A stretch of 64,000 bases of DNA from an uncultured Acidobacteriota bacterium (GTDB taxonomy: Bacteria > Acidobacteriota > Vicinamibacteria > Vicinamibacterales > UBA2999), in the NCBI GenBank assembly GCA_963724485.1, contig CAVRUW010000009.1:198999-262998 (forward strand). Direction: 5' to 3'. Below, piece by piece: positions 1 to 62,842 of the stretch (the stretch's first letter is position 1; each line of letters opens with the position of its first letter). The position numbers were made by a program, and so were the translations under genes. A model generated the notes under the pieces. It made no database searches. It worked only from the letters and a program-made list of their open reading frames with translations, and had not been told where the DNA came from.

Positions 1-83
1 ATCGAGAACCCGGCGTCCGCGAGGACCTTCTGAGCTACGTGTCGCGTGATCCGGTCGTCATCAACGATCAGGATTCTGCTCAT
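1..83 (-). CDS. response regulator receiver protein (N-terminal part only; runs off the window start)
   Basis: The minus-strand ATG at 83..81 overlaps the TGA of the upstream histidine kinase (ATGA). The translation [27 protein letters not shown] is a canonical CheY-like receiver N-terminus. Confidence 0.6.
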
Positions 84-3076: not shown

Positions 3077-3118
3077 GTCAAACGCTTACGCCTTCTCTCA
3101 GATTCTGCGACGACGGGC

Positions 3119-3147
3119 GCATAAAAGGGGACTGTCCCCTTTTATGC
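3119..3147. repeat. 29-nt perfect palindrome GCATAAAAGGGGAC-T-GTCCCCTTTTATGC (copy 1 of 3)
   Basis: Read directly from the sequence. The same 25-nt core ATAAAAGGGGACNGTCCCCTTTTAT recurs at 8963..8991 and 9010..9040. It lies between a minus-strand stop (3188) and the next minus-strand start (3076). Confidence 0.85.
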
Positions 3148-3187
3148 AGTTGACACTCTTTGTCACACAGCGTGTCGGCGGGGGCGG

Positions 3188-4438
3188 CTATTGCGACCGC
3201 CCGCGTGCGGTCACGGGCCAGACCCCGACGACGCGATCATTTCGGGTCACGTACATTTGGTCGTAGAGATTCACGACCGGGTCGCAGTGAGGAACGATCA
3301 GCTCGAGCCGGTCGCCGATCTTGTAGCTCTTCGACGCCTCTTTCACGGTGATGACGCCAAACTCGTCGGACCCCGCGTTGTAGTCCATGTGCGGCTCGCC
3401 GATGACGCCCGCCCGCGGCGTGTTGAGCGTGAGCGCCTTGGCACCCGCATCGGTCGTCAGTCGGCCAGGGAATCGGTTGTTGAGAATCGTCGTCAACACG
3501 GTCAGCGACGTCGCGAAGTCGTTGTAGGTCGGTGAGCCATCCTCGCTGCCGATCGCGAGGTACTGCATGTCCATGAAGACATAGCTGCCAACCTGGACGT
3601 CGGTGAACCCGGGCGTCAGATGCTGCACGCTGTAGGTACCCGTGCCGCCGCCGCTGAAGATTTCCATGTTGAGACCGCCGGCTTTCAGCGCCTCGAACGT
3701 CTTCGCGTTCTCCTCCATGTTCTTCAGCGCCCGCTCCTTGCGCGCGGCGAATCCATCGACGTGTTGAGTCCCGCCGTCATACGACAGGACGCCGCGCAGT
3801 TTCAGATTCGGGAGCGTGTCGATCAGTTTGGCTAAAGCGATGGCGCCATCACCTGCGGGAATTCCGCTCCGCGTTCCGACTGCGACATCGATGACCACGT
3901 CGGCAACGACATCAGCTTCTTTCGCCGCCGCTGACAGATCCCGGGCATTCTGCTCTTCGTCGACCGCTTGAATGAAATGGGGAAAACGTTTCCGCAACTG
4001 CATCGCACGACGAATCTTGCTGACCGAGGGATTGCTGGTCGTCATGCAGATCCGGTCGATCCCGGCGCTGAGCAGCGACTCGGCTTCGCTGACCTTGGCG
4101 GTGCAAATGCCAATCGCCCCGGCCGCCAGCTGCAGCCGGGCGATGTCGGCTGACTTGTGGGTCTTCGCGTGCGGTCGAGTCGCGATGCCGTTCTTCTTCA
4201 CCACCGCCTGCATCTTGGCGATGTTGGCTTCGATCCGATCGAGATCGACACACAGCGCTGGCGTGTCCAGATCCCATTTCGAGATGCCAGTCTCGGCGCC
4301 CGTGGCACGAGCGAGCGCGGCTTGAACATCGCCGACGGAGTATCCGTTAACGACTCGAGGCATGTGCATAAGCGGGGCGACAACGACCGACGATGAGAGG
4401 AACGCGCGCCGTGAGATCGACCAGGATCCTGTGCTCAT
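3188..4438 (-). CDS. Tat-signal PLP enzyme, alanine-racemase-fold D-threonine aldolase / D-serine dehydratase (DSD1-like) family
   Basis: ORF 3188..4642 trimmed to the ATG at 4438, giving MSTGSWSISRRAFLSSS, a twin-arginine motif. The PLP-lysine motif RPHAKTHK and the C-terminal HCDPVVNLYD are typical of this family. Confidence 0.75.
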   Translation of the reverse strand: MSTGSWSISRRAFLSSSVVVAPLMHMPRVVNGYSVGDVQAALARATGAETGISKWDLDTPALCVDLDRIEANIAKMQAVVKKNGIATRPHAKTHKSADIARLQLAAGAIGICTAKVSEAESLLSAGIDRICMTTSNPSVSKIRRAMQLRKRFPHFIQAVDEEQNARDLSAAAKEADVVADVVIDVAVGTRSGIPAGDGAIALAKLIDTLPNLKLRGVLSYDGGTQHVDGFAARKERALKNMEENAKTFEALKAGGLNMEIFSGGGTGTYSVQHLTPGFTDVQVGSYVFMDMQYLAIGSEDGSPTYNDFATSLTVLTTILNNRFPGRLTTDAGAKALTLNTPRAGVIGEPHMDYNAGSDEFGVITVKEASKSYKIGDRLELIVPHCDPVVNLYDQMYVTRNDRVVGVWPVTARGRSQ

Positions 4439-4497
4439 CTGCGACCTCCTGCGAAGCAGGGTCATCTTAACGCGAGCCGAGTCGTGAACGACCCGGT

Positions 4498-4995
4498 TCA
4501 AGCCATCTCTGGATTCAGCCGGAGATGATCGACTTGGTACTGAGCGTAGCGGCCATCGCTCAGGAAGATGGTGAAGATCTCGTGAACGATGTTGACCGCC
4601 TTCCGCACCCCGTATGCGGCGTGGTCGCCCTTGAGCGTGCAAACGAGTGAGACCACACCGCCGCGGTTGAGAATCTGAACGTGGAGCTTGCGGCGATCGA
4701 TCCGGCGATGCTCCGGACGCGCGCGAGAGTGCTGTTCGTGCAAAAACCCTCGTAAATCCTTGTCCATGGCCGATCTAGGCGGCACACCCGGAAAGAGGTC
4801 CTGAAAGACCAACCGGCGGGAGGCCGGCACGAACGTGACGGTGAACGCCAGATCGCGGAACCACGTGAAGCGAAACACCGAGACGCGGCCACGTGGGGCC
4901 GCCTCCGCGAAGCTGCGAAACGTACCGAGGTTTGCGTAGTGCTCGAGACTGTGACGAACGACGGCCTGGTCACGGCCCGCGGCACGAATCGCCAT
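4498..4995 (-). CDS. hypothetical protein (165 aa, Arg-rich, no recognised motif)
   Basis: The only long non-repetitive ORF filling the gap between two supported genes. There are no motifs I can name. Confidence 0.45.
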   Translation of the reverse strand: MAIRAAGRDQAVVRHSLEHYANLGTFRSFAEAAPRGRVSVFRFTWFRDLAFTVTFVPASRRLVFQDLFPGVPPRSAMDKDLRGFLHEQHSRARPEHRRIDRRKLHVQILNRGGVVSLVCTLKGDHAAYGVRKAVNIVHEIFTIFLSDGRYAQYQVDHLRLNPEMA

Positions 4996-5084
4996 CCCGT
5001 AACAACCTTACCCGAACATTACGTGACGGAATCCGTCCTCTTGACCGATACTGGTAGTCACAAACTTTTGCAATAGAGGAACCC

Positions 5085-6461
5085 ATGACTCGAGCGATCG
5101 CGGGAATTTCGGCGGTTTTCGGGATTGTCTTGGCCGGCACGCTGGCCGTGACCGCGCAGGGCCAGGCGACTGGTCAGGCGGCAGCCAGCCGGCCGGCGCA
5201 GTCCACGGCCGCCAATGCTCCCACCTACAGCAAGGACGTCGCACCCGTCCTATACAAGCACTGCACCACGTGCCATCGACCGGGCGAGATTGCGCCCATG
5301 TCGCTGATGACCTACGAAGAGGCACGGCCCTGGGCTCGCGCCATTCGCGAGAATGTCGTCAGCGGCGCGATGCCGCCGTGGCACGCGGATCCGGCTCACG
5401 GCAAGTGGCTCAACGATCGTCGTTTGTCCGATGCAGAGAAAGATGTCATCAGTCGCTGGGTCGCGGCTGGCGCGCCACAGGGCGATCCGAAGGATCTGCC
5501 GGCGAAGCCGGTGTACGCGGAGGGCTGGGCGATCGGCGAACCGGATCTCGTCGCGAAGATGGAAACCGCATTCGAAGTGCCCGTAAGCGGCACCATCCCT
5601 TACCAGTACTTTGAAGTGCCGACGAACCTCACCGAAGACAAATGGGTCGAAGCACTCGAAGTGCGTGCTGGCGATCGCTCGGTGGTCCATCACGTGTTGG
5701 TCTACGTGCGTCATCCTGGAATGACGGCACCGACGGTAGCCTTCCGGCCAGCGAATCCTCCGGGAGGTCCAGCGCCGCCGCAGCAAGAGGATCCGTCGCA
5801 ACTCACCGGTTCGTCGCGCCCTCCTTCCGGAGCGCGTCGCGGTCCACTCATGACGCAAATCGCGCCCGGGACGCCGCCGACCGTCTACGTCCCTGGAACC
5901 GGGCTCTTGCTCAAAGCAGGCTCCGTGCTCACGTTCCAGATTCACTACACGACCAACGGCAAGGCAGCATCGGATCGCAGCATGGTCGGTTTCAGGTTTT
6001 CGAAGGAACGTCCCACGATTGAAGTGCGAACCAACGCGATGATGAACCCACGCTTCATGATTCCAGCGGGAGCGGAAAATCATCCGGTCGAATCCGGGGT
6101 TTCATTTGTCGAAGACGTGACGATTTACGGACTGATCCCGCACACTCATCTGCGCGGCAAGAGCTGGAACTACACAATGACGTGGCCCGACGGCAAGACG
6201 GAGACGATTCTCGCCGTTCCGAAGTACGACTTCGATTGGCAGACCGAGTACGTGTTTGCGACGCCACTTCGCGTGCCGAAGGGTTCGGTCCTGAAGGCAG
6301 TCGCGGTCTACGACAACTCGAAGAACAACAAGTCGAACCCCGATTCGACCAAGGACGTCTACTGGGGCGACCAGACGTGGGAAGAGATGCAGTACACCGG
6401 CATCACTTTCAGCATCGACAAGGAACGCGCCACGACGACCGCATCGGGACAGAAGCAGTAG
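5085..6461 (+). CDS. exported cytochrome c domain fused to a PHM/DBH-like type II copper monooxygenase fold
   Basis: GAGGA lies 5 nt before the ATG, and there is a signal peptide. The heme-c motif is CTTCH. Copper-ligand-like motifs are HHVLVY, FQIHYT, PHTHLRGK and EEMQY, matching the CuH His3 / CuM His2Met pattern. Confidence 0.7.
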   Translation: MTRAIAGISAVFGIVLAGTLAVTAQGQATGQAAASRPAQSTAANAPTYSKDVAPVLYKHCTTCHRPGEIAPMSLMTYEEARPWARAIRENVVSGAMPPWHADPAHGKWLNDRRLSDAEKDVISRWVAAGAPQGDPKDLPAKPVYAEGWAIGEPDLVAKMETAFEVPVSGTIPYQYFEVPTNLTEDKWVEALEVRAGDRSVVHHVLVYVRHPGMTAPTVAFRPANPPGGPAPPQQEDPSQLTGSSRPPSGARRGPLMTQIAPGTPPTVYVPGTGLLLKAGSVLTFQIHYTTNGKAASDRSMVGFRFSKERPTIEVRTNAMMNPRFMIPAGAENHPVESGVSFVEDVTIYGLIPHTHLRGKSWNYTMTWPDGKTETILAVPKYDFDWQTEYVFATPLRVPKGSVLKAVAVYDNSKNNKSNPDSTKDVYWGDQTWEEMQYTGITFSIDKERATTTASGQKQ

Positions 6462-6468
6462 AACCTAC

Positions 6469-6625
6469 AGGCCTCAGAAACACAGAGATCAGAGAGGGGA
6501 AGGGATAGCCACGAAGGACACGAAGTCACGACGACAGATCCAAATGGTTCTTCGTGCTCTTCGTGTTCTTCGTGGTTTCGTTTTGTACCGTTCCGTGGTC
6601 TCTGTGTCTCTTAGGTCTGAGGCCT
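6469..6625. repeat. nested word-repeat hairpin element (outer CACAGAG-type arms, inner CACGAAG-type arms)
   Basis: The termini AGGCCTCAG (6469) and CTGAGGCCT (6625) are perfect inverted repeats. The outer arm cacagagatcagagag pairs with tctctgtgtctct. The inner arm gccacgaaggacacgaagtcacg pairs with ttcgtgctcttcgtgttcttcgtgg. Confidence 0.85.
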
Positions 6626-6646
6626 GATCCGTTTTAGAATGACTCG

Positions 6647-7867
6647 ATGACCAACCGGGTGGCCGCGTGGATGACCTTTGCGGCTGCGGCGCTCGCCGCG
6701 GTCATCGTGCTGAGCCCCTCTCCCGTCTACTCGCACAAGCCAATTACCACGAGTGTTCTCTTCAAGAACGAGATCGCGCAGATCTTCCAGCGCAAGTGTT
6801 TCCAGTGCCACTCCGAGAACAACCTCGGCGTTTCGCTGACGACCTATACCGATGCCAGGCCGTGGGCCCGCGCGATCCGGGAAGAGATTCTCGAGCGAAA
6901 GATGCCGCCCTGGACCGCCGTGCCCGGGTACGGGCACTTCTCGAATGACATCAGCCTCAGCGCGCGCGAGATGGAGATCGTTCTCTCGTGGACGGATGGC
7001 GGTGCACCAAGCGGAGTCCTCAAAGTCGACGAATCGACACCGCCGGTGTACGTGCCACCGGCACCCGCATGGGATCGAGGCACGCCGGACAAGGTAGTAC
7101 CGATCGGCGGCGGTCAATCCATCGACGCTGGCGCCCCCTTCGAGGTCAAACGCTTCGTCGTCGACACGGGGTTTGATGCTGCGAAACGTGTGCGTGCACT
7201 TGCGTTGAAGCAAGGCGACAGGCGCGTGGTTCGTCACGCCGCTTTCTACGAGAACGCAACCGGCCGATGGCTCGGCGCATGGACACCCTGGCAAACGATC
7301 GCGACTCTCCCCGAGGCCGGTGCGTATCGACTTCCGGCACGGGCTCAGATCCTGGTTGAGATCGGGTACTCAGGCACAACGGAAGCAGTCACCGACAAGA
7401 GCGAGCTGGGGTTGTACTTCGACACCGGTTCGGGTCCCAGCGTCGACTCGATGGCGCTGCGCTCGCCGGAAACTTCATTGCCCGCGGGTGCGACGGCGCA
7501 TCGGGTTCGGACGGAGACGAAGATCTCGGCCGCGGTTTCGGTCGTCGCGCTGTGGCCGACACCAACGGATGGCGCGCGCTCGATCGAGATCGCCACGACC
7601 TCGCCGGATGGCGTGGTCTCGCCGTTGCTGTGGATCAAGGATTTCCGACCGGAGTGGCGCTCGCCCTACGTCCTGTCCTCGCCGGTTTCGCTGCCCGTGG
7701 GGACCCGCGTCACGATGACGACGTACTTCGACAACCCCTCCGACAAGACGAGCGTCGCACGAGCCCAGGCGTGGCTGGCGGTGGTGGCGAGTGGGACGGG
7801 AGGGACGGGTAGGTCGGGTGGGGCAGGTAGGGCTAGTGGGTCGGCTCGGTCCGGCCTACTGCGGTGA
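6647..7867 (+). CDS. paralog of 5085..6461: cytochrome c domain plus a degenerate (ligand-less) PHM-like domain
   Basis: CFQCH, ARPWARAIREE, MPPW and SWTDGGAPSG align with the upstream gene. The Cu-ligand positions read RH / EIGY / LWPT instead. The 3' end overlaps the convergent gene by 12 nt. Confidence 0.65.
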   Translation: MTNRVAAWMTFAAAALAAVIVLSPSPVYSHKPITTSVLFKNEIAQIFQRKCFQCHSENNLGVSLTTYTDARPWARAIREEILERKMPPWTAVPGYGHFSNDISLSAREMEIVLSWTDGGAPSGVLKVDESTPPVYVPPAPAWDRGTPDKVVPIGGGQSIDAGAPFEVKRFVVDTGFDAAKRVRALALKQGDRRVVRHAAFYENATGRWLGAWTPWQTIATLPEAGAYRLPARAQILVEIGYSGTTEAVTDKSELGLYFDTGSGPSVDSMALRSPETSLPAGATAHRVRTETKISAAVSVVALWPTPTDGARSIEIATTSPDGVVSPLLWIKDFRPEWRSPYVLSSPVSLPVGTRVTMTTYFDNPSDKTSVARAQAWLAVVASGTGGTGRSGGAGRASGSARSGLLR

Positions 7868-8920
7868 CGCGTCACCAGGTCGCGGCGCCGCAAAGGTAAA
7901 CGACACCGTCGACAACCGATCGTTGCGTTGGAACTGCAGCCACGCGCGGTAGCGGCCCGGCTTCGGCAGCAGCGCATCGAAGATCACTTCCGGGCCACCG
8001 GTGGGACCAGCATTCGGATCCGGCTGCGTCTCCTCGCGCGGGTGCGCGTGCACGTAATCGGTCATGTCTTCGCTCAGGATCAACAGGTGACCCCAGGCGC
8101 CTAGGTATCGTTGGAGATCCGTGATCGGCGCATCGGTCTTTGCGTCGTTGAAACGGAAGACCAAATCGATCTCTTCACCACCAAGAAACTGCGTCTGCTC
8201 GTTGAGCAGCGAAACCTTCACACCATCGGCGGTCCTGACCCACGGCATGTCCGGCTTCAGCTTGGCTTGCGCGGCGGTGATATCGGGATCCGCACCGGCC
8301 GTCACGATCGGAGTCGCCGTGATCTGCGCACCGCCACCGCGAGCGAGAAAGTCCGAGAAGAGCACGTAGTGACCGGGCTTCGGCAACGTGTGCTCGATCG
8401 TGAACGAGCCGTCTTTGTGCGGCTCCGGATGAATGTGCGCGAACTCCTCGAGATCGCGGCTGATCACGAATAGATGAAACAGCTTGTCGTGCACGGTAGC
8501 GAACTCGCTCGCCTGTTCGCCGGTGATCGGATGATGGGCGGTGAAACGGAACTTGATCGGTGTCCCGGCTTTGATCACCTTCGGCGTCGTCTCGACGCGG
8601 AGACGGAAATCCGGCATCGTGATCGGGCTGCCGGCGACAAGCTCCATGTCGCAGCGAGGGCACCTGCCAGGCGTTGCCGACATGACGTCAGGGTGCATAG
8701 GACAGACGTACACGCTCGCCGGGGCGGCCACGAGCTCCATGCCACATCGCGGGCACTTGCCCGGGACGGCCGACATGACGTCCGGGTGCATGGGGCAAAC
8801 ATAAACGGCGGCCGTCTGCCCTTCGCCGATGGGTGCCTGCTGGCTGGCGTGGCTGTGGACTGACAGGGCCGACGCGCCGATCGTCGCCACGAGCAGGAGA
8901 CTGGCCCAAACTTGTCGCAC
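7856..8920 (-). CDS. exported heavy-metal-binding-domain protein (two CPMHP...CPRC modules)
   Basis: ORF 7856..9010, whose first 30 codons read through the palindromic repeats. The in-frame GTG at 8920 gives the signal peptide VRQVWASLLLVATIGASALSVHSHA. It has tandem VYVCPMHPDVMS..PG.CPRC.MELV modules and then two His-rich repeats (FAHIHPEPH, YVHAHPRE). Confidence 0.7.
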   Translation of the reverse strand: MRQVWASLLLVATIGASALSVHSHASQQAPIGEGQTAAVYVCPMHPDVMSAVPGKCPRCGMELVAAPASVYVCPMHPDVMSATPGRCPRCDMELVAGSPITMPDFRLRVETTPKVIKAGTPIKFRFTAHHPITGEQASEFATVHDKLFHLFVISRDLEEFAHIHPEPHKDGSFTIEHTLPKPGHYVLFSDFLARGGGAQITATPIVTAGADPDITAAQAKLKPDMPWVRTADGVKVSLLNEQTQFLGGEEIDLVFRFNDAKTDAPITDLQRYLGAWGHLLILSEDMTDYVHAHPREETQPDPNAGPTGGPEVIFDALLPKPGRYRAWLQFQRNDRLSTVSFTFAAPRPGDASPQ

Positions 8921-8962
8921 TATCTGCTGATTGTAGGAACTTTCCGCCAGCCGCGCCAACTT

Positions 8963-8991
8963 GCATAAAAGGGGACAGTCCCCTTTTATGC
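8963..8991. repeat. 29-nt perfect palindrome GCATAAAAGGGGAC-A-GTCCCCTTTTATGC (copy 2)
   Basis: Read directly from the sequence. Identical to copy 1 except for the central base. Confidence 0.85.
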
Positions 8992-9009
8992 AGGTGACCA
9001 GTTTCGTCA

Positions 9010-9040
9010 ATGAATAAAAGGGGACAGTCCCCTTTTATTC
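9010..9040. repeat. 31-nt perfect palindrome TGAATAAAAGGGGAC-A-GTCCCCTTTTATTCA (copy 3)
   Basis: Read directly from the sequence. It lies 18 nt from copy 2 and has the same 25-nt core. Confidence 0.85.
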
Positions 9041-9070
9041 ATTCGTAGTGCGCGGGGACGATGACGGAGA

Positions 9071-9823
9071 TCACCGCGGGCGGCGGACCTCGACTTCGAC
9101 GACCTCGGCATCGCCGCCAACGCTGGCGATGGTGTGCTCCGCGTCCCCGTCGAACCAGGCGAACTGACCAGGCTTGTCGAGTGCCTTCGTCGAAGGTCCA
9201 CCAGCTGAAGCGCGACCGGTGATCAAGACGACGGCGACCGGATTGCGATGGCGATGGGGCTTGGCGTCGGCCGTGAGCGCCCATCGATAGCCTCGGAACC
9301 AGCGGTTGGTGATCTCAGGCTTCGCATCAAACCCCTCGCTGGGTGCTTCGGTCTCGTCTCCCGCGGAACGATTCAGGATGCCGATCAGCCGAAAGAGGCC
9401 TTGACCCACGTTGTTGACACGATGCGTGAGCGGTTGCTTTGCATAACTGGTCGTGCTCGTCATGCGACCTACGGCAGGTGCCGCAGGTGCCCCGGGTGCC
9501 GCAGCGGCACCGGACGACGGCTTGGCGCCAGCACCCTGGGCAGAATCGCCACCCGACCACTCGCCGCCGAGACTTTGTGATCTCGTTCGAGACTGGCTCA
9601 TCGAGACGTACAAGATCGGGTCGCTGTGCGTGTGGAACAGCGTTGTGTCGCCGGCGGGAATCTGCACGTCGAGAATTCGCGTCGCCGGCGCTTCGAACAC
9701 GAGATGATGACGAGGCTCTTCATGAACCGGTACAACTTTCTCGGATTGCGCAACACTGACGGGAACACGCAACACCAAGAAACACGCGACAACGGCTGCG
9801 TAACAGGCTGCTCGACGACCCAT
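9071..9823 (-). CDS. exported hypothetical protein with two cupin-like halves
   Basis: ORF 9071..9847 trimmed to the ATG at 9823, which is preceded by GAGGGAGG. It has a signal peptide and the motifs LFHTHSDP and FDGDAEHT. The function is unknown. Confidence 0.5.
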   Translation of the reverse strand: MGRRAACYAAVVACFLVLRVPVSVAQSEKVVPVHEEPRHHLVFEAPATRILDVQIPAGDTTLFHTHSDPILYVSMSQSRTRSQSLGGEWSGGDSAQGAGAKPSSGAAAAPGAPAAPAVGRMTSTTSYAKQPLTHRVNNVGQGLFRLIGILNRSAGDETEAPSEGFDAKPEITNRWFRGYRWALTADAKPHRHRNPVAVVLITGRASAGGPSTKALDKPGQFAWFDGDAEHTIASVGGDAEVVEVEVRRPR

Positions 9824-9849
9824 GATCAATGCCTCCCTCGAATCCACCG

Positions 9850-12886: not shown

Positions 12887-12902
12887 GCAGCGAGCGCGAT
12901 GG

Positions 12903-13089
12903 GGGGATGCGGACCATTTGCTTCGGAAACCGGTTACGCAGGCCGGAAAAACGCTGCTCCGGCGTCTCGTCTCTGTTCAAGCGCGTGGGGACCCCCATCC
13001 CCACGCGGTGATACTCACCTGCGCAGCGTTTTTCGTGTCGCCTGACGGCCTGCTCCACACGGTTTCCTGCGCAAACGGTCCGCATCCCC
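12903..13089. repeat. 187-nt imperfect inverted repeat (rod-like multi-stem hairpin) in a convergent intergenic gap
   Basis: Complementary blocks: ggggatgcggacc 12903-15 / ggtccgcatcccc 13077-89; ggaaaccg 12925-32 / cggtttcc 13060-67; gcaggccg 12938-45 / cggcctgc 13046-53; gaaaaacgctgc 12946-57 / gcagcgtttttc 13023-34. The apical stem is cgcgtgggga 12982-91 / tccccacgcg 12998-13007. Confidence 0.8.
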
Positions 13090-13119
13090 TACCGCGAGGA
13101 CCGCACCCGTGCCGGCGAA

Positions 13120-14097: not shown

Positions 14098-14128
14098 CGG
14101 AAACTCCGTGGAGAACGATTGGAAGCCA

Positions 14129-15313: not shown

Positions 15314-15389
15314 GAAGACTTCCCACCATCATATTCACAGATGACCGCCCATGACGCTTCGCGAGTCGCGATCGTCGTGACGGCTTCCC

Positions 15390-18826: not shown

Positions 18827-18839
18827 TGGGAATACGTTA

Positions 18840-18908
18840 GCCACGAAGCACGAAGAACACGAAGGAAACGAATCAATGTTGTCTTCGTGTCTTCGTGCCC
18901 TTCGTGGC
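18840..18908. repeat. CACGAAG-family word-repeat hairpin
   Basis: The left arm gccacgaagcacgaagaacacgaagg pairs with the right arm gtcttcgtgtcttcgtgcccttcgtggc. Confidence 0.85.
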
Positions 18909-18921
18909 TACGTTCTACGAA

Positions 18922-21964: not shown

Positions 21965-21990
21965 GGGCACAGGATCCATCTCCTGTGCCC
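21965..21990 (-). terminator. intrinsic terminator-like hairpin downstream of the aminotransferase gene
   Basis: GGGCACAGGA-tccatc-TCCTGTGCCC is flanked by an A-run on one side and TTTT on the other. On the minus strand it is followed by TTTCGTTTTG. Confidence 0.55.
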
Positions 21991-23274: not shown

Positions 23275-23577
23275 GCCACGATTGGGTGATTGGGCGAGTG
23301 AGGTGATTGCAGTGCGTGATTGGGGGATTGGGTGATTGCAGTAGGGGATTGGGTGATTACAGTGGGTGATTTGGTGATTGCAGGGGTGATTTGGTGATTG
23401 CGGGGATGGCCAGTGAGGGTAGCGGATAGGCAACTGGACGATTGAGAAACTGGGCAGTTCGAGGATAGCCGGTTTGGGCGAACCGGGCATTCTGCCTCAA
23501 TCGCTCAATCCAACCACCCAATCACTCAATCGCCATTGCAATCACCCACTCACCCACTCACCCAATCAATCAGTGTT
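23275..23577. repeat. about 300-bp composite inverted repeat built from about 20-nt GGTGATTGGGTGATTGCAG-type units
   Basis: The left arm (23275-23405) has about 6 degenerate tandem units. The right arm (23497-23577) is their reverse complement (caatcacccactcacccactcacccaatc). The central section is about 90 nt and contains the hairpin ccggtttgggcgaaccgg. Confidence 0.8.
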
Positions 23578-28161: not shown

Positions 28162-28257
28162 CACGAGGCACGGAAGCACAGAAACACGGAATCAAATCTT
28201 ACGATCAGTTGACAGGGCACTTGCCTAACCAGTTCCCGTGTTTCCGTGTTTCCGTGG
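28162..28257. repeat. CACGGAA-type word-repeat hairpin inside the his operon (hisF-hisA spacer)
   Basis: The left arm cacgaggcacggaagcacagaaacacggaa pairs with the right arm ttcccgtgtttccgtgtttccgtgg. The loop is about 40 nt. Confidence 0.8.
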
Positions 28258-28272
28258 CTTGTACGTTGGTCG

Positions 28273-38848: not shown

Positions 38849-38889
38849 CTGAGTCCTCGAACGAAGAAACCGGGCCAATAAAAAAGACA

Positions 38890-38957
38890 GCCACGAAGGG
38901 CACGAAGTCACGAAGGAGGATCCAACCATTTCTTCGTGTTCTTCGTGCCTTCGTGGC
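38890..38957. repeat. CACGAAG-family word-repeat hairpin
   Basis: The left arm gccacgaagggcacgaagtcacgaagga pairs with the right arm cttcgtgttcttcgtgccttcgtggc. Confidence 0.85.
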
Positions 38958-38987
38958 TACGTTTTTCGGGAGCCGCCGTCTCCCTGC

Positions 38988-43384: not shown

Positions 43385-43885
43385 TTGCCTGTGATTTTGG
43401 AAAAAGCACACGCTCAAGACGTCCCGGGCATCGCCGCTCTTCGAACAGCGGTCGCCGAGCGTCTGACCCGCGATTTCGGTAAGGGACACTGGTCACAGGG
43501 CGGCACCGAGAGCGGCGTCATCCGGGATATGGCCATCCCCGGCCTCTATGTCGCGCGGGATGGTGGAAAGTTGATCGCAAGCCTGCGGCTGGCTGCCAAG
43601 AAGCCATGGGCGATCGATCCCGCCTACTTCAGCGCCAGCCAGTCGCCGCTCTACCTGACCAGTATGGCCGTGGATCCGGATCGGCAACGTCAGGGGGTTG
43701 GTCGCGGCTGCATGATCGACGCGCTACGGATTGCGCGCGAGCGCTCTGCCAACGCGATTCGTCTCGATGCCTACGACAGCGTGGCCGGCGCCGGGGGTTT
43801 TTACGAAAAGTGCGGATTTCGCGAGGTCGGTCGCGTCGTCTATCGAAACACCCCGCTCATCTACTACGAGATGTTAATCGGATAG
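43385..43885 (+). CDS. GNAT-family N-acetyltransferase
   Basis: The acetyl-CoA motif is RQRQGVGRGCMIDALRIA and the length is GNAT-like. The start is the TTG at 43385 (GAGG 8 nt upstream) or the GTG at 43391. Confidence 0.7.
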   Translation: MPVILEKAHAQDVPGIAALRTAVAERLTRDFGKGHWSQGGTESGVIRDMAIPGLYVARDGGKLIASLRLAAKKPWAIDPAYFSASQSPLYLTSMAVDPDRQRQGVGRGCMIDALRIARERSANAIRLDAYDSVAGAGGFYEKCGFREVGRVVYRNTPLIYYEMLIG

Positions 43886-43964
43886 TTACAAGTTCCAAGT
43901 TACAAGTTACCAACCAAGGAACTCTGAACTGAACTTGTAACTTGTAACTTGTAACTTGTAACTT
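43885..43964. repeat. CAAGTTAC-family word-repeat hairpin
   Basis: The left arm gttacaagttccaagttacaagttacc pairs with the right arm gaacttgtaacttgtaacttgtaacttgtaactt. It ends 6 nt before the next ATG. Confidence 0.85.
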
Positions 43965-45376: not shown

Positions 45377-45482
45377 GAGCCTCAGAGACTCAGAGAGTAA
45401 TCAAGTTACGAGAATTGAGCCACGAAGGGCACGAAGTCACGTCCTTCGTGGCTGACTTCGTCCTGTGTCTCTTACTCAGTGA
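45377..45482. repeat. composite word-repeat element (outer CTCAGAG arms, inner CACGAAG arms) between convergent genes
   Basis: The outer arm gagcctcagagactcagagagtaa pairs with cctgtgtctcttactcagtga. The inner segments are ccacgaagg (45420-28), acgaagtca (45431-39), ccttcgtgg (45443-51) and tgacttcgt (45453-61). Confidence 0.8.
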
Positions 45483-49090: not shown

Positions 49091-49594
49091 ATGCGAACAC
49101 GCACCTTTCTGATCTCTGTGTCCCTGTGTCTCTGTGGCCTGTATGCGATCGCCGGCGCACAATCGAAGGCCAACGACTCCGAGGTGCAAAAGCGCTTTGT
49201 CGGCCACTGGCGCCTCGTCAAGTTCGAGAATTTTGACGAGAAAGGGGGCGCCCGGCTCGCTGCATACGACGGCGGCCGAATCATGTATGACACCGGCGGG
49301 AACATGTCGGCACAGCTGATGCGCTCGGAGCGGAAGCCGCTGGCGACACCGTCAACCGAGCCCGAGAGAGCTGCCGCCTATGCCACATACACGGCGTACT
49401 ACGGCAAGTACACGATCGATCCCGCGCTCGGGAAAGTGACGCACCACGTGGAAGGCGCGCTCAATCACAGCTGGGTCAAGACCGACCTCGTGCGGTACTA
49501 CGCGTTCGCGCCAGATGGCAACCAGCTGATGCTGTCGATCAAGAACGCAGAAGGTCGCGTCACCGGGACGCTCACCTGGGAGCGACTGCGCTGA
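49091..49594 (+). CDS. exported lipocalin-like domain protein
   Basis: FVGHWRLVKFENFDEKGG...GRIMYDTGGNMS resembles the lipocalin-like domain. The signal-peptide codons are repeat-derived. Confidence 0.55.
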   Translation: MRTRTFLISVSLCLCGLYAIAGAQSKANDSEVQKRFVGHWRLVKFENFDEKGGARLAAYDGGRIMYDTGGNMSAQLMRSERKPLATPSTEPERAAAYATYTAYYGKYTIDPALGKVTHHVEGALNHSWVKTDLVRYYAFAPDGNQLMLSIKNAEGRVTGTLTWERLR

Positions 49595-50153: not shown

Positions 50154-50242
50154 GTGTCAGTTGTCAGTTGCCAGTTGTCAGTTCAAAGGCAACCGAGTGC
50201 TTCTCTGAACTGGGAACTGGTAACTGATAACTGGAAACTGAC
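50154..50242. repeat. CAGTTGY-family word-repeat hairpin between convergent genes
   Basis: The left arm gtgtcagttgtcagttgccagttgtcagttcaaagg pairs with the right arm ctctgaactgggaactggtaactgataactggaaactgac. Confidence 0.85.
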
Positions 50243-52579: not shown

Positions 52580-52672
52580 GAGTTGCAAGTTCCACAGTTC
52601 CAAGTTACAAGTTCAGTTTGCCAGTTGCGCAGCGCACGCGGTTTGTAACTTGAAACTTGTAACTTGTAACTA
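52580..52672. repeat. CAAGTTAC-family word-repeat hairpin
   Basis: The left arm gagttgcaagttccacagttccaagttacaagttcag pairs with the right arm gtttgtaacttgaaacttgtaacttgtaacta. Confidence 0.85.
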
Positions 52673-54047: not shown

Positions 54048-54134
54048 CAGTTTCCAGTTACCAGTTACCAGTTCAAAGGGGGTTGCGAGTTAGCCTGAAC
54101 GTCTCTTTGAACTGACAACTGGCAACTGACAAAC
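54048..54134. repeat. CAGTTAC-family word-repeat hairpin
   Basis: The left arm cagtttccagttaccagttaccagttcaaagg pairs with the right arm ctctttgaactgacaactggcaactgacaaac. Confidence 0.85.
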
Positions 54135-54269: not shown

Positions 54270-56453
54270 ATGAACTCGCGGCCCGCCCCTCCCGCTCAAC
54301 GTGTCTCGCGACGCCGGTTCCTGCGCGACGCGACGGTCGGCGCGGGTTCGGTGGCCGCTGCGTCCAGCGCCCTCGAGGCGAAGCAGGCCACACGCCAGAG
54401 CAGGGCCGCCGGTGCCCTCGACCGGACGGCCAGAACCACTACGCCACCCGCCGCCCTCGACATTCGAATTCCCGATGAGCTGACCTCAGGATCCAACGCC
54501 GCCGCGAGCGAGATCCAATTCCCCATGACCGGCGCGCAGGTCTTTGCCCGGGCATGCAAGGAAGAAGGCGTGGCCGCGCTGTTTTGTTGCCCCGGCAACT
54601 ATGGCGTCATCCATGCAATCGCGAGCGCGGGGATTCCGACCTACTCGGGAAGGCACGAAGGCGCAATGACCCACGCGGCGGACGCGTTCATTCGCGTGAC
54701 CGGCGAGATTGCGGTGGCCTCCGGGACCGAAGGGCCGGGGTTCACCGACATGATTTGCGGCATCGCCTGTGCGAACGCCGCCCGCACGCCATTGCTCGTC
54801 GTCGCCAGCAACATGGCGCTGTTCCAGGAAGATACCGAGGCCGGCATCCAGCTCGCCTATCAGCAGCCCACCACGGTCGGGATGAAGAAGTACGGCAAGC
54901 GGTTGGTCACCCCCGGCCGTGTGCACGAGTACGCCGCGTATGCCTTCCGGCAGTTGCGAAGCGGCGTGCCGGGACCTGTGCATCTCGACTTTCCTGCTGA
55001 AGTCGCCTCTGCGCGATTCAAGGACGCCAGCGAGCTGTCCTATTACTTCGAGAAAGGCAAATACCGCACGGAGAGCTGGCCGCACCCGTCGCCCAAGCAA
55101 ATTGACGCCGCGGTCGCAATGCTCAAGGCCGCCGAGCGGCCGATCATCGTCTCCAGCAATGGTGTCTTCTATCGCCGCGGATGGGACGCACTGAAGCGTC
55201 TCGCCGAGAAGGCTCAGATTCCGGTCGTCGAATCGGGGGCGATGAAGGGGCAGTTCTCCGACGCGCACCCGCTCAGCGCGAACACGGCTCCAACCGCGCT
55301 CGCCAGCGCGGATGTCGTGGTGCTCGTTGGACAGCACTGCATGCCGACGGTCGGCGAGTTCGCGTTCGGCCCCGACGCCCGCTACATCCGCATCGATCAG
55401 TCGCATGAAGACATCGGTCGCAACCTGCCCATCGAGCTTGGCATCGTGAGTTGCGAGAAGGCAGCGCTCGAAGCATTGGCCGATGCGATGCCAGCAACGC
55501 GGCATGACGCATGGGTGGCGGAAATTGCAGCCGCGCGGGACAAGTTCGAGGCGCAAAACGACGAGTACTACAAGATCGGCGCGAGTTATACCGACGCGCT
55601 TCATCCGGCCGTGATCGCGAAGGAGCTATCGGATTTCTTGTATCGCGGCAGCATTCCTCGCGAACAGGTGACAATCGCGTCCGGCGGCTACGGGATTGCG
55701 CGCTACACGCGGCGCTGGCTGCGGGGCTATCGGCCCGGGCAGATCATGAATGGCGCTTATCAGTACGGCGCCATCGGACCCGATGTGGGCTACTCGTTAG
55801 GTGTGGCCGCCGCGGTTCATCACGGCATCGGACCTCAGGCGGCCGCCAAGGGCAGTCCCATTGTCTGCATTACAGGGGACGCAGGCTTCGGATACACGGC
55901 CATGGAGATGGAAACGCTGAGCAAATACCGTCTCCCGGTGATTGTGCTGGTTTACAACAACAATGCGTGGGGCACCTGGACGACGGCCCGGGAGGCCAAG
56001 GCGCTGCCATTGCATCTTTTCCAGGAGAACGTCCGATACGACAAGGTGGGCGAGGCCTTGGGCGCCCACGGAGAATACGTCACCAAACCGGGGGATTTCC
56101 GGCCCGCTCTCGAACGGGCCTGGCAAGTTGCCATCAAGGAAAGCCGCCCGTCGGTGATTAACTGTCAGGGCAAGAAGGAGTTTTGGCTTCGCGACCAGTA
56201 CCCGCCGGGGATGCTTGGCAAGATCGAGCCCGGGTGCATGTCGGTACTACCACTAGGGGCTGCCACGTTGCGGCCGCACGGTCCACGGTCCCACGGTCGC
56301 ACGGATCGAACGGTGGCTCCCGGGAGTCCTACCGTAGACCGTAGGCCCGAATTGGAGACCGGGGACCGGAGACGATGCGACGGCGCGAAGCCGCCGTCGC
56401 GAACAATGCGGCGCGCGCCTCGCCGCTGCTGGCTGATGTGCAGACGTTCGTAG
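54270..56453 (+). CDS. Tat-signal thiamine-diphosphate enzyme (acetolactate-synthase/pyruvate-oxidase superfamily)
   Basis: [26 protein letters not shown] is a twin-arginine signal. The catalytic Glu motif is GRHEGAM and the ThDP motif is [33 protein letters not shown]. The last 70 or so codons read through a repeat element. Confidence 0.8.
56277..56373. repeat. CACGGTC word-repeat region (weaker hairpin)
   Basis: gcacggtccacggtcccacggtcgcacgg has partially complementary ctaccgtagaccgtagg and ggagaccggggaccggagac downstream. It lies inside the 3' end of the ThDP ORF. Confidence 0.5.
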
Positions 56454-60171: not shown

Positions 60172-60181
60172 GGGCCGAGAA

Positions 60182-60241
60182 CAGGGAGATCGGGGAGATC
60201 AGGGAGTTGGAATTTTCTCCCTGAACTCCCTGAACTCCCAG
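60182..60241. repeat. GGGAGAT/CAGGGAGTT word-repeat hairpin
   Basis: The left arm cagggagatcggggagatcagggagttgg pairs with the right arm ttctccctgaactccctgaactcccag. Confidence 0.85.
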
Positions 60242-60307
60242 TCCTCGTCCCGCGTTAGGCTGGTAGGGCGGGTGGGCCAGTTCGGTCCACTCGCCCTTTC
60301 TCTTCGT

Positions 60308-61921: not shown

Positions 61922-62842
61922 GAAAGTTGTCAGTTACCAGTAACTGGAAACTGATTCTGCCGGCGGCACTAGTTCTTTCGGGGACGCTGGCCGGAGCGCA
62001 AACCTCGCCGCCAGCGCAGCCGACCGGCTTCCACCATCTCCACCTGAACTCCACAGACCCCCCGGCTGCCATCGCCTGGTACACCAAGACCTTCGCCGTG
62101 ACCTCTCGCGCGACGGTGGCGGGATTCGAGGGCATCGCGACCGAGAAGATTCATTTGCTGTTCACGCGAACTGACAAAGCGCCTAGCAGCGCACTGGACT
62201 CGCCAATCTGGCATTTCGGTTGGGGCAGCCCGGACATGCCGGGCGACTTTGCGATGCATCAAACCAACGGCGTGAAGTTCGCGACCCCCCTCAGCAAGCT
62301 CGCGCAGGGGACGGTGTTTGCCTACATGAACGCGCCCGATGGCGCGCTCGTCGAAATCAATTCGGCTCAGAGCCGCGCCTTTGTACACGTCCACCTGTAC
62401 AGCGAGCATCCGGTGTGTGCGGCTGACTGGTATGTGACGCACCTCGGGGCGGCACGACGCGGCGCTGCACGGGAGGTGCCCCTCGACTTCGCTCGGGACA
62501 AGCCCCTCGACTCCGCTAGGGGCAAGCCCCTGCGAGGCGCCTTATGCCGCGCCGAGCGAACCGCTGGCCGTCATCCGCTCGCCTGCCGCGACCGTGCGTT
62601 TTGACGACATCAGCCTCATAATCTACCCACGCCAGCGGCCCGGGGCGCTGGTTTCCTCAGCCGGACACGTTGTCGACCATCTCGCTCTTTCGGTGGCGGA
62701 TCTTGCCGCGACCGTCAAGCGTCTGGAAGCCACAGGCGTGAAGGTGCTGCGCGGCGTGCATCCGTTTGGCAGTGGACAGGGCAAGGCAGCGTTGATAGAA
62801 GGTCCAGACTCGATCGTCATTGAACTTGTGGAGCAGCCATGA
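61918..62842 (+). pseudogene. exported four-module VOC (glyoxalase/dioxygenase-fold) protein split by a +1 frameshift
   Basis: Modules 1-3 are in frame 61918 (GFHHLHLNS..., IWHFGWGS..., FVHVHLYSEHPVCAADWYVTHLGA). The rest of module 3 plus module 4 is in frame 62594 (TVRFDDISLIIYP..., HVVDHLALSVADLAATVKRLE...). A 24-nt tandem repeat lies at the junction. Confidence 0.6.
62478..62531. repeat. 24-nt tandem repeat (2.25 copies) gcccctcgacttcgctcgggacaa / gcccctcgactccgctaggggcaa / gcccct
   Basis: Read directly from the sequence. Copies start at 62478, 62502 and 62526. Confidence 0.85.

Follow-up and report, generated by a model that had tools for sequence, protein, structure and literature searches.

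What are the long hairpins, with arms built from tandem 7-8-nt words, that recur between the genes of an uncultured Acidobacteriota bacterium? We examined this question in the window, i.e., the whole 64,000-nt stretch of DNA that was analyzed, for which the first-pass annotation had listed 13 such loci (Table 1). The hairpin content described was present at all 13. By RNA folding, 11 are solid hairpins, one is weak (E11), and one is doubtful (E13), with predicted fold energies between -33.9 and -141 kcal/mol in 12 of the 13. Tandem-repeat analysis (TRF) found arrays of period 7-9 in both arms, and the inverted arms were recovered by a repeat search. Under a strict criterion, the window holds six inverted array pairs versus none in each of 30 dinucleotide shuffles, and its hairpins therefore exceed chance. 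The word CACGAAG occurs 32 times (12.6 ± 3.6 expected), and 20 of these occurrences belong to four hairpins, the left arm invariably having the word on the + strand and the right arm having it on the - strand. A more permissive detector of hairpins from arrays was set aside, since it falsely flagged too much GC-rich coding sequence.

Table 1. Hairpin elements of the window and their parts. Positions are those of the window; bounds listed originally are given in brackets where they differ
Feature	Position	Arms or words	Placement	Predicted fold energy (kcal/mol)
E1, composite nested element	6468..6626 (6469-6625)		between two + strand genes; 7 nt past stop at 6461, 20 nt ahead of ATG at 6647	-85.8
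E1 termini, perfect 11 nt	6468-6478 / 6616-6626	CAGGCCTCAGA / TCTGAGGCCTG	outer palindrome	
E1 outer arms		CACAGAG/CAGAGAG-type words	enclose inner CACGAAG hairpin	
E1 inner CACGAAG hairpin	6507..6578 (arms 6509-6525, 6559-6575)	GCCACGAAGG A CACGAAG T CACGA ... 3 x CTTCGTG		
E2	18840..18908	CACGAAG x3 / CTTCGTG x3	13 nt past stop of TonB-type receptor gene (- strand); abuts cyclophilin gene start	-40.5
E3, 303-nt hairpin	23275..23577	5' arm GGTGATTG-type words, 3' arm CAATCACC-type words	between two - strand genes; conserved in L399	-141
E4	28162..28262 (28162-28257)	CACGGAA/TTCCGTG	hisF-hisA spacer, - strand operon	-38.7
E5, hairpin	38881..38966 (38890-38957)	CACGAAG x3; A-run + T-run flanks	22 nt past stop of S9 peptidase gene (- strand)	-42.9
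E6, pure heptamer	43884..43964 (43885-43964)	(AGTTACA)n / (AACTTGT)n	between GNAT gene stop and M64 peptidase ATG (6 nt downstream)	-33.9
E7, nested	45377..45482	outer CTCAGAG-type arms, inner CACGAAG hairpin	convergent genes	-41.4
E8	50154..50242	(TGTCAGT)n / (NAACTGR)n	between convergent genes	-49.2
E9	52580..52672	(CAAGTTN)n / (AACTTGT)n	between two - strand genes	-34.6
E10	54048..54134	(CAGTTAC)n / (CAACTGR)n	6 nt after a stop	-35.2
E11, weaker hairpin	56277..56373	CACGGTC / GACCG	low-complexity C-terminal tail of thiamine-pyrophosphate (TPP) enzyme ORF	-48.9
E12, hairpin	60172..60251 (60182-60241)	GGGAGATC-type / CTCCCTGAA	just past stop of CarboxypepD_reg protein gene	-51.6
E13, doubtful 28-nt mini-hairpin	61927..61954	CAGTTAC/AACTG words	inside ORF start	-10.3
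Lone half-array, + strand, absent from first list	49112..49137	CTCTGTG-type x3, without complementary arm		
		

Some of these loci need qualification. E4, E5, and E12 are real, but their bounds had been drawn too short, with pairing running a few bases further. At E11 a hairpin is present but it is weaker and imperfect, and it lies within an ORF tail; E13 is a doubtful family member given its size, its fold energy, and its position inside a coding start. That several word families coexist was borne out, at least six unrelated words being used within these 64 kb. The half-array at 49112-49137 is analogous to half-arrays in L122 and in the L001 copy of E10 (L numbers designate sequences outside the window).

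The arms have a consistent anatomy. Each consists of repeats of a polar 7-nt core word with 0-3 spacer bases between them, at a period of 7 in E6, E8, E9, and E10 and of 8-9 in the other copies, which makes the arms tandem repeats as in the STRR hairpins discussed below. Facing words pair as 7-bp helices separated by small internal loops. Whichever word is used (more than 20 were seen), the 3' arm complements the 5' arm of the same element, i.e., the arms co-vary between copies. Facing spacers show no complementarity, with 32/90 and 24/73 Watson-Crick pairs as in the shuffled expectation, which makes it unlikely that the arms are maintained by fold-back copying or by arm-to-arm template-switch correction. 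Mismatches cluster in few columns (0.725 versus 0.670, p = 0.015, in arrays chosen without any pattern). CACGAAG and CACAGAG hairpins have a flank consensus in common, TT[A/C]AC before the words and GT[T/G]AA after them. Across phyla, flanks are A-rich upstream and T-rich downstream (the T-enrichment starting at +7), and the bases at -1/+1 and at -2/+2 can pair in 65-89% of copies, so that they prolong the palindrome; no direct repeat is present. L038 has a 22-nt perfect flank palindrome, and L335 and L361 have terminator-like flanks. Nested copies are seen in E1, E7, L010, L326, and L338, and E10 and E8 have the apex CAGTTCAAAGG...TTGAACTG in common.

These elements are not confined to the window. 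A scan of a genome collection gave at least 120 matches, which represent 15 phyla or more, and CACGAAG hairpins of this same build were found in MAGs, isolates, and phages. Nor are they assembly artefacts, a concern raised by the first-pass annotation, since three independent assemblies of the population contain them, as do long-read MAGs and cultured isolates; cultured carriers include Thiohalophilus thiocyanatoxydans DSM 16326, Desulfobacter vibrioformis DSM 8776, Herpetosiphon sp. NSE202, and Bowmanella denitrificans JCM 13378. Word order is strongly polar: in viral stretches, CACGAAG comes first 59 times and its reverse twice, while the corresponding counts are 96 versus 21 for CACAGAG and 6 versus 0 for AGTTAC, with 5 for a permuted control word. 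CACGAAG and CACAGAG exceed the permuted word 10- to 20-fold. Neither this fixed polarity nor the non-pairing of spacers had been noticed at first reading. The elements are members of a widespread class that is absent from the libraries searched: Rfam gave no match at gathering thresholds (E-value hits were only sub-threshold miRNA-precursor look-alikes), and consensus BLAST found no match among PLSDB plasmids and four unannotated faecal phage records among GenBank phages. A literature search with 15-16-mers of the two main families returned no bacterial paper, and cross-phylum CACRRAG families with common termini and phage presence appear in no paper searched. More general literature searches yielded papers on STRR, TAACTGA, REP, and BoxC/PIT elements only, and the BoxC/PIT triplex motifs have a different sequence.

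How are the copies related to one another? The inner hairpins of E1 and E7, E2, E5, and an element of the independent Acidobacteriota MAG L013 align with a mean column identity of 76%, over an alignment that covers termini and apex, and the closest element to the window copies is one from an Acidobacteriota MAG. Copies in a single genome have spacers and apex in common, and the likeness of non-word parts at the same locus is 0.58 versus 0.51 ± 0.016, and 0.53 versus 0.46 ± 0.014, expected from composition. No transposase was found next to or between copies: ordinary enzymes and transporters are all that is encoded by the 10 genes situated between two copies in other genomes, and the same holds for the 20 proteins of the window that were scanned. 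We found no direct target-site duplication across the copies aligned and no clean filled/empty site pair among the related loci compared. Given these three absences, it is sequence similarity that speaks for dispersal, and the copies appear to have spread among the 3' spacers of unrelated genes.

Individual copies change quickly. Against L001, a 99.3%-identical contig, about 10 of 17 gap openings fall inside hairpins, and a hand count gave 14 substitutions in ~520 nt of hairpins versus 68 in ~20.8 kb elsewhere, an ~8-fold higher rate. The differences include a 1-nt indel in E5, 31 nt of apex present in L001 and missing from E7 in the window, one additional 7-nt word in the 5' arm of E8 in L001, many substitutions in the 5' arm of E9, and the loss of one arm in E10, whose L001 copy is without the loop and the entire 3' arm. 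The decay of E9 and E10 between such close strains implies weak constraint on any single copy. Between two 99.35%-identical phages, indels of 5 nt or more number just two, and each corresponds to a single 8-nt word of a CACAGAG array. In L225 and L013, successive words of a single arm carry an identical change. Spacers downstream of the M64 peptidase gene have different words in related lineages, a given spacer can hold one family in one phage and a different family in a related phage, and an element is present in one of L190 and L192 but absent from the other. In the sister contig L399, which is indel-rich and was compared only qualitatively, E1 is retained with small changes. The elements are thus strain-to-strain mutation hotspots, through whole-word indels and arm loss.

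Placement relative to genes is also characteristic. The window has 16 intergenic spacers that measure 40 nt or more; 10 of them hold an element, and the single divergent one holds none. Four of the five other non-divergent spacers carry a different strong hairpin (three classical A-tract/T-tract hairpins and one 30-nt inverted repeat), and this mutual exclusion between elements and classical terminators suggests that the elements fill a role. Among 116 intergenic copies from many genomes, with genes outside the window called by a crude codon model, divergent contexts account for 8.6% versus 16.8% of background spacers. The stop lies a median of 6 nt ahead of the hairpin, and the next start a median of 8 nt beyond it. 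As the first-pass annotation had proposed, elements lie past stops, between convergent genes, and inside operons. The in-operon case in the window is correctly the hisF-hisA spacer; others separate CO-dehydrogenase subunits in L075 and genes of phage structural modules, phages having several copies between structural genes.

Its view that most copies lack a T-tract and are not plain intrinsic terminators was likewise supported. A U-tract accompanies one or two of 12 window copies, with a clear T-run on the transcribed strand only at E5, the sole window element with classical bidirectional-terminator flanks, and a weak T-run at E1; in phage L371, it is A-runs that come after the copies. Terminator-like sites in positions 1-20000 number 11 versus 13.7 expected. 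We detected no sense-strand bias: where the two strands differed, the sense RNA was the more stable one 35 times out of 85 among genomic copies and 42 times out of 89 among viral copies (90 viral cases tested), and G-U pairs number 214 sense versus 249 antisense in genomic copies and 208 versus 209 in viral ones.

Several known systems resemble these elements in part. The view that the architecture is undescribed was not supported: tandem 7-bp STRR hairpins are reported between the genes of filamentous cyanobacteria, e.g., hupS-hupL, where they have been proposed to act in transcript stability, translational coupling, or termination (PMC2670836). Both are hairpins of tandem 7-bp repeats located in intergenic spacers or close to where the preceding gene ends, and one family here (family B: E6 and E8-E10) is a pure heptamer array like STRR. 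However, most window families combine a 7-nt core with a variable spacer at a period of 8-10, unlike STRR, and the STRR hosts are cyanobacterial, whereas the gene content of the window is of acidobacterial type. CCCCAGT, TTGGTCA, and CAACAGT, which we take to be STRR units, never occur in tandem in the window.

Among the candidate roles put forward at first reading, a REP/BIME-like one fits best by position and behavior, but not by the features of the REP stem and head. With 11-13 hairpin copies per 64 kb, the window elements resemble REP/BIME sequences in being dense, high-copy, extragenic palindromes with imperfect arms that lie at the 3' ends of genes and in operons; in both cases, one genome has several families. 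A link to RAYT, a Y1 transposase whose gene is flanked by the repeats, is typical of REPs, and no RAYT was seen in the sequence examined (64 kb of the genome plus interposed genes). REP elements have been proposed to act in mRNA stabilization and termination, and each is one stem of 20-40 bp whose head, GTAG or CGTC, is conserved (PMC3733652). In contrast, the window elements are 60-303 nt long with arms of tandem words, their flank consensus is TT[A/C]AC rather than GTAG, and CTAC follows only E2 and E5.

A third parallel is offered by the TAACTGA repeats of Beggiatoaceae, cyanobacteria, and Bacteroidetes, with 169 direct sets versus one inverted, whose cross-phylum sharing has been interpreted as horizontal transfer by an unspecified mechanism (MacGregor 2015, PMC4679880). 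Both are intergenic tandem heptamers, often a few bases before a start codon, and NAACTGR, with TAACTGA among its forms, is the sequence of the 3' arms in E8, E10, and E13. In the window, however, the inverted partner is the rule, whereas TAACTGA arrays have no complementary arm; TAACTGA never occurs in tandem there, and NAACTGR arrays always come with a complementary arm. Correia/NEMIS, ERIC, RUP, and Nezha MITEs can be co-transcribed and can act as RNA hairpins. Like them, the window elements are short, non-coding, palindromic, multi-copy, and intergenic, but the unique-sequence inverted terminal repeats, target-site duplication, and parent IS that characterize MITEs were not found in the sequence examined here. 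Bidirectional terminators are alike in being A-rich 5' and T-rich 3' of a strong stem, after stops or between convergent genes. They differ in that the window elements mostly have no U-tract, have stems far longer than termination needs, and have periodic arms.

What, then, are these elements? The reading that we prefer, and to which we give an even chance, is that they form a REP/STRR-like family of palindromes that is dispersed over gene 3' ends, behaves like a microsatellite, and probably works at the RNA level as a 3'-end hairpin. Whole words are gained and lost from the arrays in the manner of a microsatellite, with words homogenized within one arm, and copies of one family, with their common termini, spacer pattern, and apex, are distributed over the 3' spacers of unrelated genes, sometimes in nested form. 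Because they fold, the elements would be tolerated in a spacer, most probably serving as RNA 3'-end hairpins, as has been suggested for enterobacterial REP elements and cyanobacterial STRR hairpins. Such a hairpin may attenuate read-through and block 3'-to-5' decay, and the base of its stem would bring the upstream stop and the next start side by side. Several observations weigh against this reading: for the ~9% of copies that lie between divergent genes, a 3'-end function is impossible; a one-directional RNA element should show the sense-strand bias that we did not find; few window copies have a U-tract; close strains differ through decay of single copies; and neither a transposase, a target-site duplication, nor a clean empty site was found.

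A broader proposal, possible but tentative enough that we would sooner doubt than adopt it, is that the CACGAAG, CACAGAG, and AGTTAC hairpins form one cross-phylum superfamily of polar word repeats, with a sequence-specific factor that makes, moves, or reads it. The candidate factor might be a new mobilizing enzyme or a conserved word-binding protein or RNA. Such a superfamily would explain the common words, the polarity, and the TT[A/C]AC termini, while spacers and loops would be free to vary.

We consider it unlikely that the elements are selfish, non-autonomous MITE- or REP-like palindromes with no host role, moved preferentially into existing hairpins or terminators by an enzyme encoded elsewhere. 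Termini of the type TT[A/C]AC-CAC..., conserved in two word families and many phyla, would be expected of such palindromes, as would fixed polarity, nesting, frequently complementary flanks (e.g., L038, L335, and L361), the family swap at one phage spacer, the L190/L192 difference, the lack of strand bias, the fast decay of copies, and carriage by phages. However, the flanks are inverted rather than direct and show no target-site duplication, and word number, spacers, and loops are too variable for simple copy-and-paste. Moreover, there is neither a transposase by the copies nor a clean filled/empty pair, and the exclusion of classical terminators by window copies suggests a role.

A further explanation, which we regard as quite improbable, is that the elements offer rows of recognition sites to a sequence-specific protein or guide RNA, which would read the 7-nt word as duplex DNA or as single-stranded or hairpin RNA; for example, a cold-shock or S1-type protein might melt the stem and so tune read-through or translation of the next gene. 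Conserved words set between free, unpaired spacers, the concentration of mismatches in few columns, fixed polarity, and identical words in distant phyla are all in keeping with this, and the footprint of a cold-shock domain matches the 7-9-nt period. For the TAACTGA repeats, MacGregor proposed S1, Csp, and CsrA (PMC4679880). Against it, unrelated words abound in one window and other words occupy the same site in relatives, so that many factors would be needed; both arms are present, which normally buries the words in the stem; and no candidate protein was identified.

Neutral replication slippage, in which ordinary 3' hairpins would grow in place by duplication of stem segments in either arm, independently at each locus and with neither dispersal nor special words, has a similarly poor chance of being the explanation. 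It would account well for whole-word indels between close strains, homogenized words within an arm, half-arrays, the more than 20 words, and different words at orthologous sites. It leaves unexplained the 59:2 and 6:0 polarity, the excess of CACGAAG and CACAGAG over the permuted word, the common flank consensus, and the spacers and apex common to unrelated loci; slippage would also duplicate word plus spacer, yet adjacent spacers differ. Finally, that these are the ordinary Rho-independent terminators of a high-GC organism is scarcely credible: they do lie directly after stops, with A- and T-rich flanks across phyla and an A-run plus T-run at E5, but a U-tract is absent in 10-11 of 12 window copies, separate classical A-tract/T-tract hairpins exist in the window, several copies are in operons, sense-strand bias is lacking, and tandem-word arms, polarity, and cross-phylum words are not terminator features. 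More speculative ideas would link the elements to attC sites, piggyBac-like TTAA ends, or an IS608-like TTAC target, to Shine-Dalgarno/anti-Shine-Dalgarno mimicry or a likeness of GTAAC words to the 16S 3' region, or to Rho utilization (rut) sites, RNase III sites, or the pause consensus of RNA polymerase.

These elements occupy most intergenic spacers of this genome and are found in phages and in 15 or more phyla, which makes them a major feature of environmental bacterial genomes that goes unannotated. They are probable breakpoints for assemblers. Their whole-word indels can serve to tell strains apart and are likely to tune the expression of downstream genes heritably. Should the elements shape the 3' ends of mRNAs, the prediction of operons, models of terminators, and the design of expression would all be affected, in groups that include Acidobacteriota, Desulfobacterota, Chloroflexota, Planctomycetota, and methanotrophs. 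Words shared across phyla with a fixed polarity repeat, at a larger scale, the puzzle posed by the TAACTGA and STRR repeats, and the mechanism by which they spread or are recognized would be new.

The target element E1 (Table) is a composite palindrome with perfect termini of 11 nt each (CAGGCCTCAGA and TCTGAGGCCTG). In the outer arm pair, the words are of CACAGAG/CAGAGAG type; in the inner hairpin, the 5' arm reads GCCACGAAGG-A-CACGAAG-T-CACGA and the 3' arm consists of three CTTCGTG words at 9-nt spacing. We refer to such hairpins, with arms of tandem 7-nt core words and 0-3 spacer bases, as word hairpins (E1-E13 along the window). At all 12 other loci listed by the first-pass annotation, the described structure is present. 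RNA folding predicts a single long stem-loop for 12/13 loci (-34 to -141 kcal/mol), and Tandem Repeats Finder shows both arms to be arrays of period 7, 8 or 9. The word hairpins are not due to chance since 1) a strict test detects six inverted array pairs in the window vs. 0 in each of 30 dinucleotide shuffles, and 2) CACGAAG occurs 32 times in the window (12.6 ± 3.6 expected), with 20 of these words sitting in four hairpins, where the word is always on the + strand in the left arm and on the - strand in the right arm.

Coordinates of word hairpins and other features of the window
Feature	Position	Remark
E1, composite palindrome (target)	6469-6625	157 nt; outer arm pair and inner hairpin
E2	18840-18908	
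E3	23275-23577	
E4	28162-28262	
E5	38881-38966	
E6	43884-43964	
E7	45377-45482	
E8	50154-50242	
E9	52580-52672	
E10	54048-54134	
E11, imperfect hairpin	56277-56373	inside junk-like C-terminal tail of an ORF; caution needed
E12	60172-60251	
E13, 28-nt mini-hairpin	61927-61954	within coding start; caution needed
Lone half-array, CTCTGTG x3	49112-49137	not in the first-pass annotation
Palindrome AAAAGGGGACnGTCCCCTTTT, three copies	3123-3143, 8967-8987, 9016-9036	classical bidirectional-terminator shape
Classical A-tract/T-tract hairpin GAAAGGGCACAGGATCCATCTCCTGTGCCCTTTTC, different	about 21957-21997	spacer after TonB-type receptor gene
30-nt inverted repeat, 87% complementary	12903-12932 and 13060-13089	convergent spacer
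Proteins without Pfam match	23579-25510 (- strand), 53533-54042 (+ strand)	

At window 56230-56453, the TPP-enzyme ORF extends ~95 residues beyond its last Pfam domain, across E11, with an Arg/Pro-rich, junk-like tail. Since a TAG in another frame (56253-56255) would stop the enzyme ~20 nt ahead of E11, this suggests that E11 has caused a frameshift or an extension by read-through. The lone half-array reads ATCTCTGTG TCCCTGTG TCTCTGTGG and has no complementary arm. Its location is either a divergent region or the start (5' end) of a lipocalin-like ORF, and it resembles what would remain of a CACAGAG-type hairpin, namely the 3' arm, after loss of the 5' arm.

The genes of the window (G+C 62%), among them those for CarboxypepD_reg/TonB-type outer-membrane proteins, DUF3089 and an M64 peptidase, point towards Acidobacteriota. 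According to our own gene calls, the window has 16 intergenic spacers of at least 40 nt. Word hairpins are found in 10 of these (five and three between tandem genes on the - and + strand, respectively, and two convergent), and none in the sole divergent spacer of this set. Four of the five other non-divergent spacers contain a different strong hairpin, three classical and one a 30-nt inverted repeat. Taking word and classical hairpins together, almost every non-divergent spacer of the window therefore has a strong hairpin. One word hairpin lies within the hisF-hisA operon, in line with the earlier report of a copy inside an operon. The prior observation that most lack a T-tract also stands, with a clear T-run on the transcribed strand at E5 only. 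Two proteins without Pfam match (643 and 169 aa) are both bordered by word hairpins, and a feature at window 62478-62531 is unrelated to the hairpin families.

The classical hairpins (A-tract, GC stem, T-tract) occupy three spacers, two of which contain AAAAGGGGACnGTCCCCTTTT. The copies of this palindrome form a second repeat family, with consensus (G/T)(C/A)ATAAAAGGGGACnGTCCCCTTTTAT(G/T)C, and two are in tandem, 18 nt apart; at these copies, Rfam gives a sub-threshold Plastid-psbJ-5 look-alike and nothing else. The presence of GAAAGGGCACAGGATCCATCTCCTGTGCCCTTTTC shows that ordinary terminators are used alongside word hairpins in this genome. Terminator-like consensus sites are not enriched in 1-20000 (11 found vs. 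13.7 expected). The 30-nt inverted repeat, without word periodicity, encloses a highly structured 127-nt interior, and the entire spacer folds at -126 kcal/mol; its copy in the related contig L399 is identical save one base inside.

How variable are word hairpins between close strains? L001, a 1.01-Mb ENA contig (ERZ25039547 contig_12550), is 99.3% identical to window 33968-55371. By our count, E5-E10 (roughly 520 nt) hold about 10/17 gap openings and 14/82 substitutions, so that substitutions are about eight times denser there than elsewhere in the alignment. The differences are an additional 7-nt word in the E8 5' arm that makes the two arms equal, a 31-nt indel at the E7 apex, a 1-nt indel in E5, many substitutions within one arm of E9, and loss of the E10 loop together with the entire 3' arm. 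Likewise, between two phage contigs with 99.35% identity, just two indels reach 5 nt or more, and each corresponds to exactly one 8-nt word in a CACAGAG array. L399 (ENA ERZ25039591 contig_34297), 96.5% identical to the window and indel-noisy, retains E1-E3, and in its E1 an A-to-G change in a 5'-arm spacer is matched by T-to-C in the facing spacer; its many short fragmented gene calls suggest an indel-rich long-read assembly. Words inside one arm are homogenised: three successive 5'-arm words are CACAAGG or CACAAAGG in one locus (L225) and CACGGAGG or CACGAAGG in its relative L219, with partial changes in the 3' arm, while another locus (L013) has CAGGAAG words in the 5' arm and still CTTCGTG in the 3' arm. 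Word hairpins are thus hypervariable mutation hotspots.

Word hairpins are neither confined to the window nor specific to one lineage, as CACGAAG hairpins occur in many phyla and in phages. Scanning a 596-Gb collection (one genome per species) for CACGAAG-N(1-3)-CACGAAG-N(5-35)-CTTCGTG yielded at least 120 matches, where we estimate ~25 by chance for the whole collection assuming uniform base composition. Nearly all listed matches show the full architecture, including extra words beyond those the pattern demanded. Among the matches listed, record titles indicate ~39 Acidobacteriota, ~18 Desulfobacterota or "delta" proteobacteria, 12 Chloroflexota, 10 Gammaproteobacteria, and 8 Planctomycetota, along with Bacteroidota, Verrucomicrobiota, Nitrospirota, Alphaproteobacteria, Firmicutes, Binatia, Hydrogenedentota, Sumerlaeota, and others. 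Cultured carriers among them are Desulfobacter vibrioformis DSM 8776, Thiohalophilus thiocyanatoxydans DSM 16326, Herpetosiphon sp. NSE202, Bowmanella denitrificans JCM 13378, and a Fulvivirgaceae isolate. The matched 8-kb loci contain 36 more word hairpins with other words, including the window words AGTTACA and CACAGAG. In IMG/VR, capsid, portal, and tape-measure proteins are encoded on the contigs richest in copies, where the hairpins lie between structural genes. In phage contigs L338 (6399-6752 and 3631-3992) and L326 (701-1810), CACAGAG hairpins are nested in CGCAAAG-word outer arms, and these units are tandemly repeated with a period of ~150 nt, three in a row. CACAGAG-type hairpins are also present in four unannotated 5-6-kb human-faecal "Bacteriophage sp." genomes (MT838283, MT837672, MT840006, and MT838077), the only matches among 50,697 GenBank phage records.

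A common anatomy is seen across phyla. CACGAAG and CACAGAG hairpins share one flank consensus, TT[A/C]AC, words, GT[T/G]AA, outside which sequences are A-rich at -12 to -6 and T-rich at +7 to +12. Complementarity at -1/+1 and -2/+2, seen in 65-89% of copies, extends the palindrome, with no direct duplication. Some copies are flanked by a long unique palindrome (22 nt, locus L038) or by terminator-like AAAAGCCTAAC...GTTAGGCTTTT, and nesting is common (E1, E7, L010, L326, and L338). The words are the conserved part and the spacers are not. Complementarity of facing spacers across the stem does not exceed purine/pyrimidine composition on shuffling (Watson-Crick pairs 32/90 vs. 30.4 ± 4.4, and 24/73 vs. 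24.7), which makes the stem a series of identical 7-bp helices joined through small internal loops. In arrays selected by no pattern, mismatches cluster in few columns (0.725 vs. 0.670, p = 0.015).

Word polarity was quantified as matching stretches in IMG/VR. We found 59 with CACGAAG first and 2 with CTTCGTG first (reverse), 96 with CACAGAG first and 21 with CTCTGTG first (reverse), and 6 with AGTTACnAGTTAC first and 0 with GTAACTnGTAACT first (reverse). The permuted control AGCCAAG gave 5 and the GCAACAG control 35, all 35 on a single strand only, which were taken to be coding CAG/CAA repeats. Since at least 7/21 reverse CACAGAG matches are in loci also matching the forward pattern, part of these may represent neighbouring hairpins. 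There is therefore a strong preference for particular words in one polarity.

Among 116 intergenic copies from the window and genome loci, with genes called by our own codon model, tandem genes flank 85, convergent genes 21, and divergent genes 10 (8.6%), vs. 16.8% divergent for background spacers. Copies fill the spacer, the stop being a median of 6 nt and the next start a median of 8 nt away. Neither the genomic nor the viral set shows a sense-strand signature: the sense RNA fold is more stable in 35/85 genomic and 42/89 viral cases that differed (90 viral tested), and G-U pairs number 214 vs. 249 and 208 vs. 209. Any role is therefore symmetric, or the transcript constraint is weak.

Family relationships link distinct loci. 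E1 inner, E5, E7 inner (L001 version), E2, and an element from an independent Acidobacteriota MAG align with 76% mean column identity and have the same termini AGCCACGAAGG...CCTTCGTGGCTA, the same spacer pattern, and GATC at the apex; the apex CAGTTCAAAGG...TTGAACTG is common to E8 and E10. Over all loci, non-word parts of copies of one locus have a likeness of 0.58 vs. 0.51 ± 0.016 and 0.53 vs. 0.46 ± 0.014 by composition. We infer that word hairpins disperse. Spacers also turn over. Downstream of 80 metagenomic M64 peptidase gene orthologues (65-75% amino-acid identity), content differs between related lineages, with hairpin words CACAAAAAG/CACATAAAG, CGCAGATRAA, CACAGATTA, CTTTGCG, or GACCG-type, a half-array, a REP-like GC hairpin, or nothing at all. 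In one spacer, two phages that are 82% identical have a CAGG-type and a CACGAAG-type hairpin, respectively, and L192 has a short GCCGCGGC palindrome at the site of the L190 word hairpin. In some relatives (L150 about 4390-4500; L146 about 4376-4450), the E7-orthologous spacer holds other long perfect palindromes, one of them GGGGCGGCCCTCCGTGGGCCGCCCC-type (-102 kcal/mol). This spacer seems to draw in a strong hairpin of one kind or another every time. Flanks, orthologous spacers, and genes near copies revealed no target-site duplication, no clean empty site, and no neighbouring transposase.

Are word hairpins a known element? Rfam has no match to them, and in the searchable literature no paper was found placing characteristic 15-16-mers in a bacterial context. 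Word hairpins depart from the MITE and from the classical-terminator definition in a tested feature each. TAACTGA direct repeats, found in Beggiatoaceae, cyanobacteria, and Bacteroidetes, have units related to window words and pose the same puzzle of cross-phylum sharing but, unlike word hairpins, have no inverted arm (PMC4679880). REP/BIME are similar in position and abundance but differ in size, in their GTAG/CGTC head and, as far as visible, in having a RAYT partner (PMC3733652). Among described architectures, the cyanobacterial STRR hairpin comes closest: it is made of 7-bp repeats, occurs in the hupS-hupL spacer and near the 3' ends of genes, and has been proposed to act in stability, translational coupling, or termination (PMC2670836).

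Word hairpins are real, widespread, and not ordinary. They are best read as dispersed palindromes of a REP/STRR-like class, with microsatellite-like arms, sitting in gene 3' spacers, where they probably act as RNA 3'-end hairpins.
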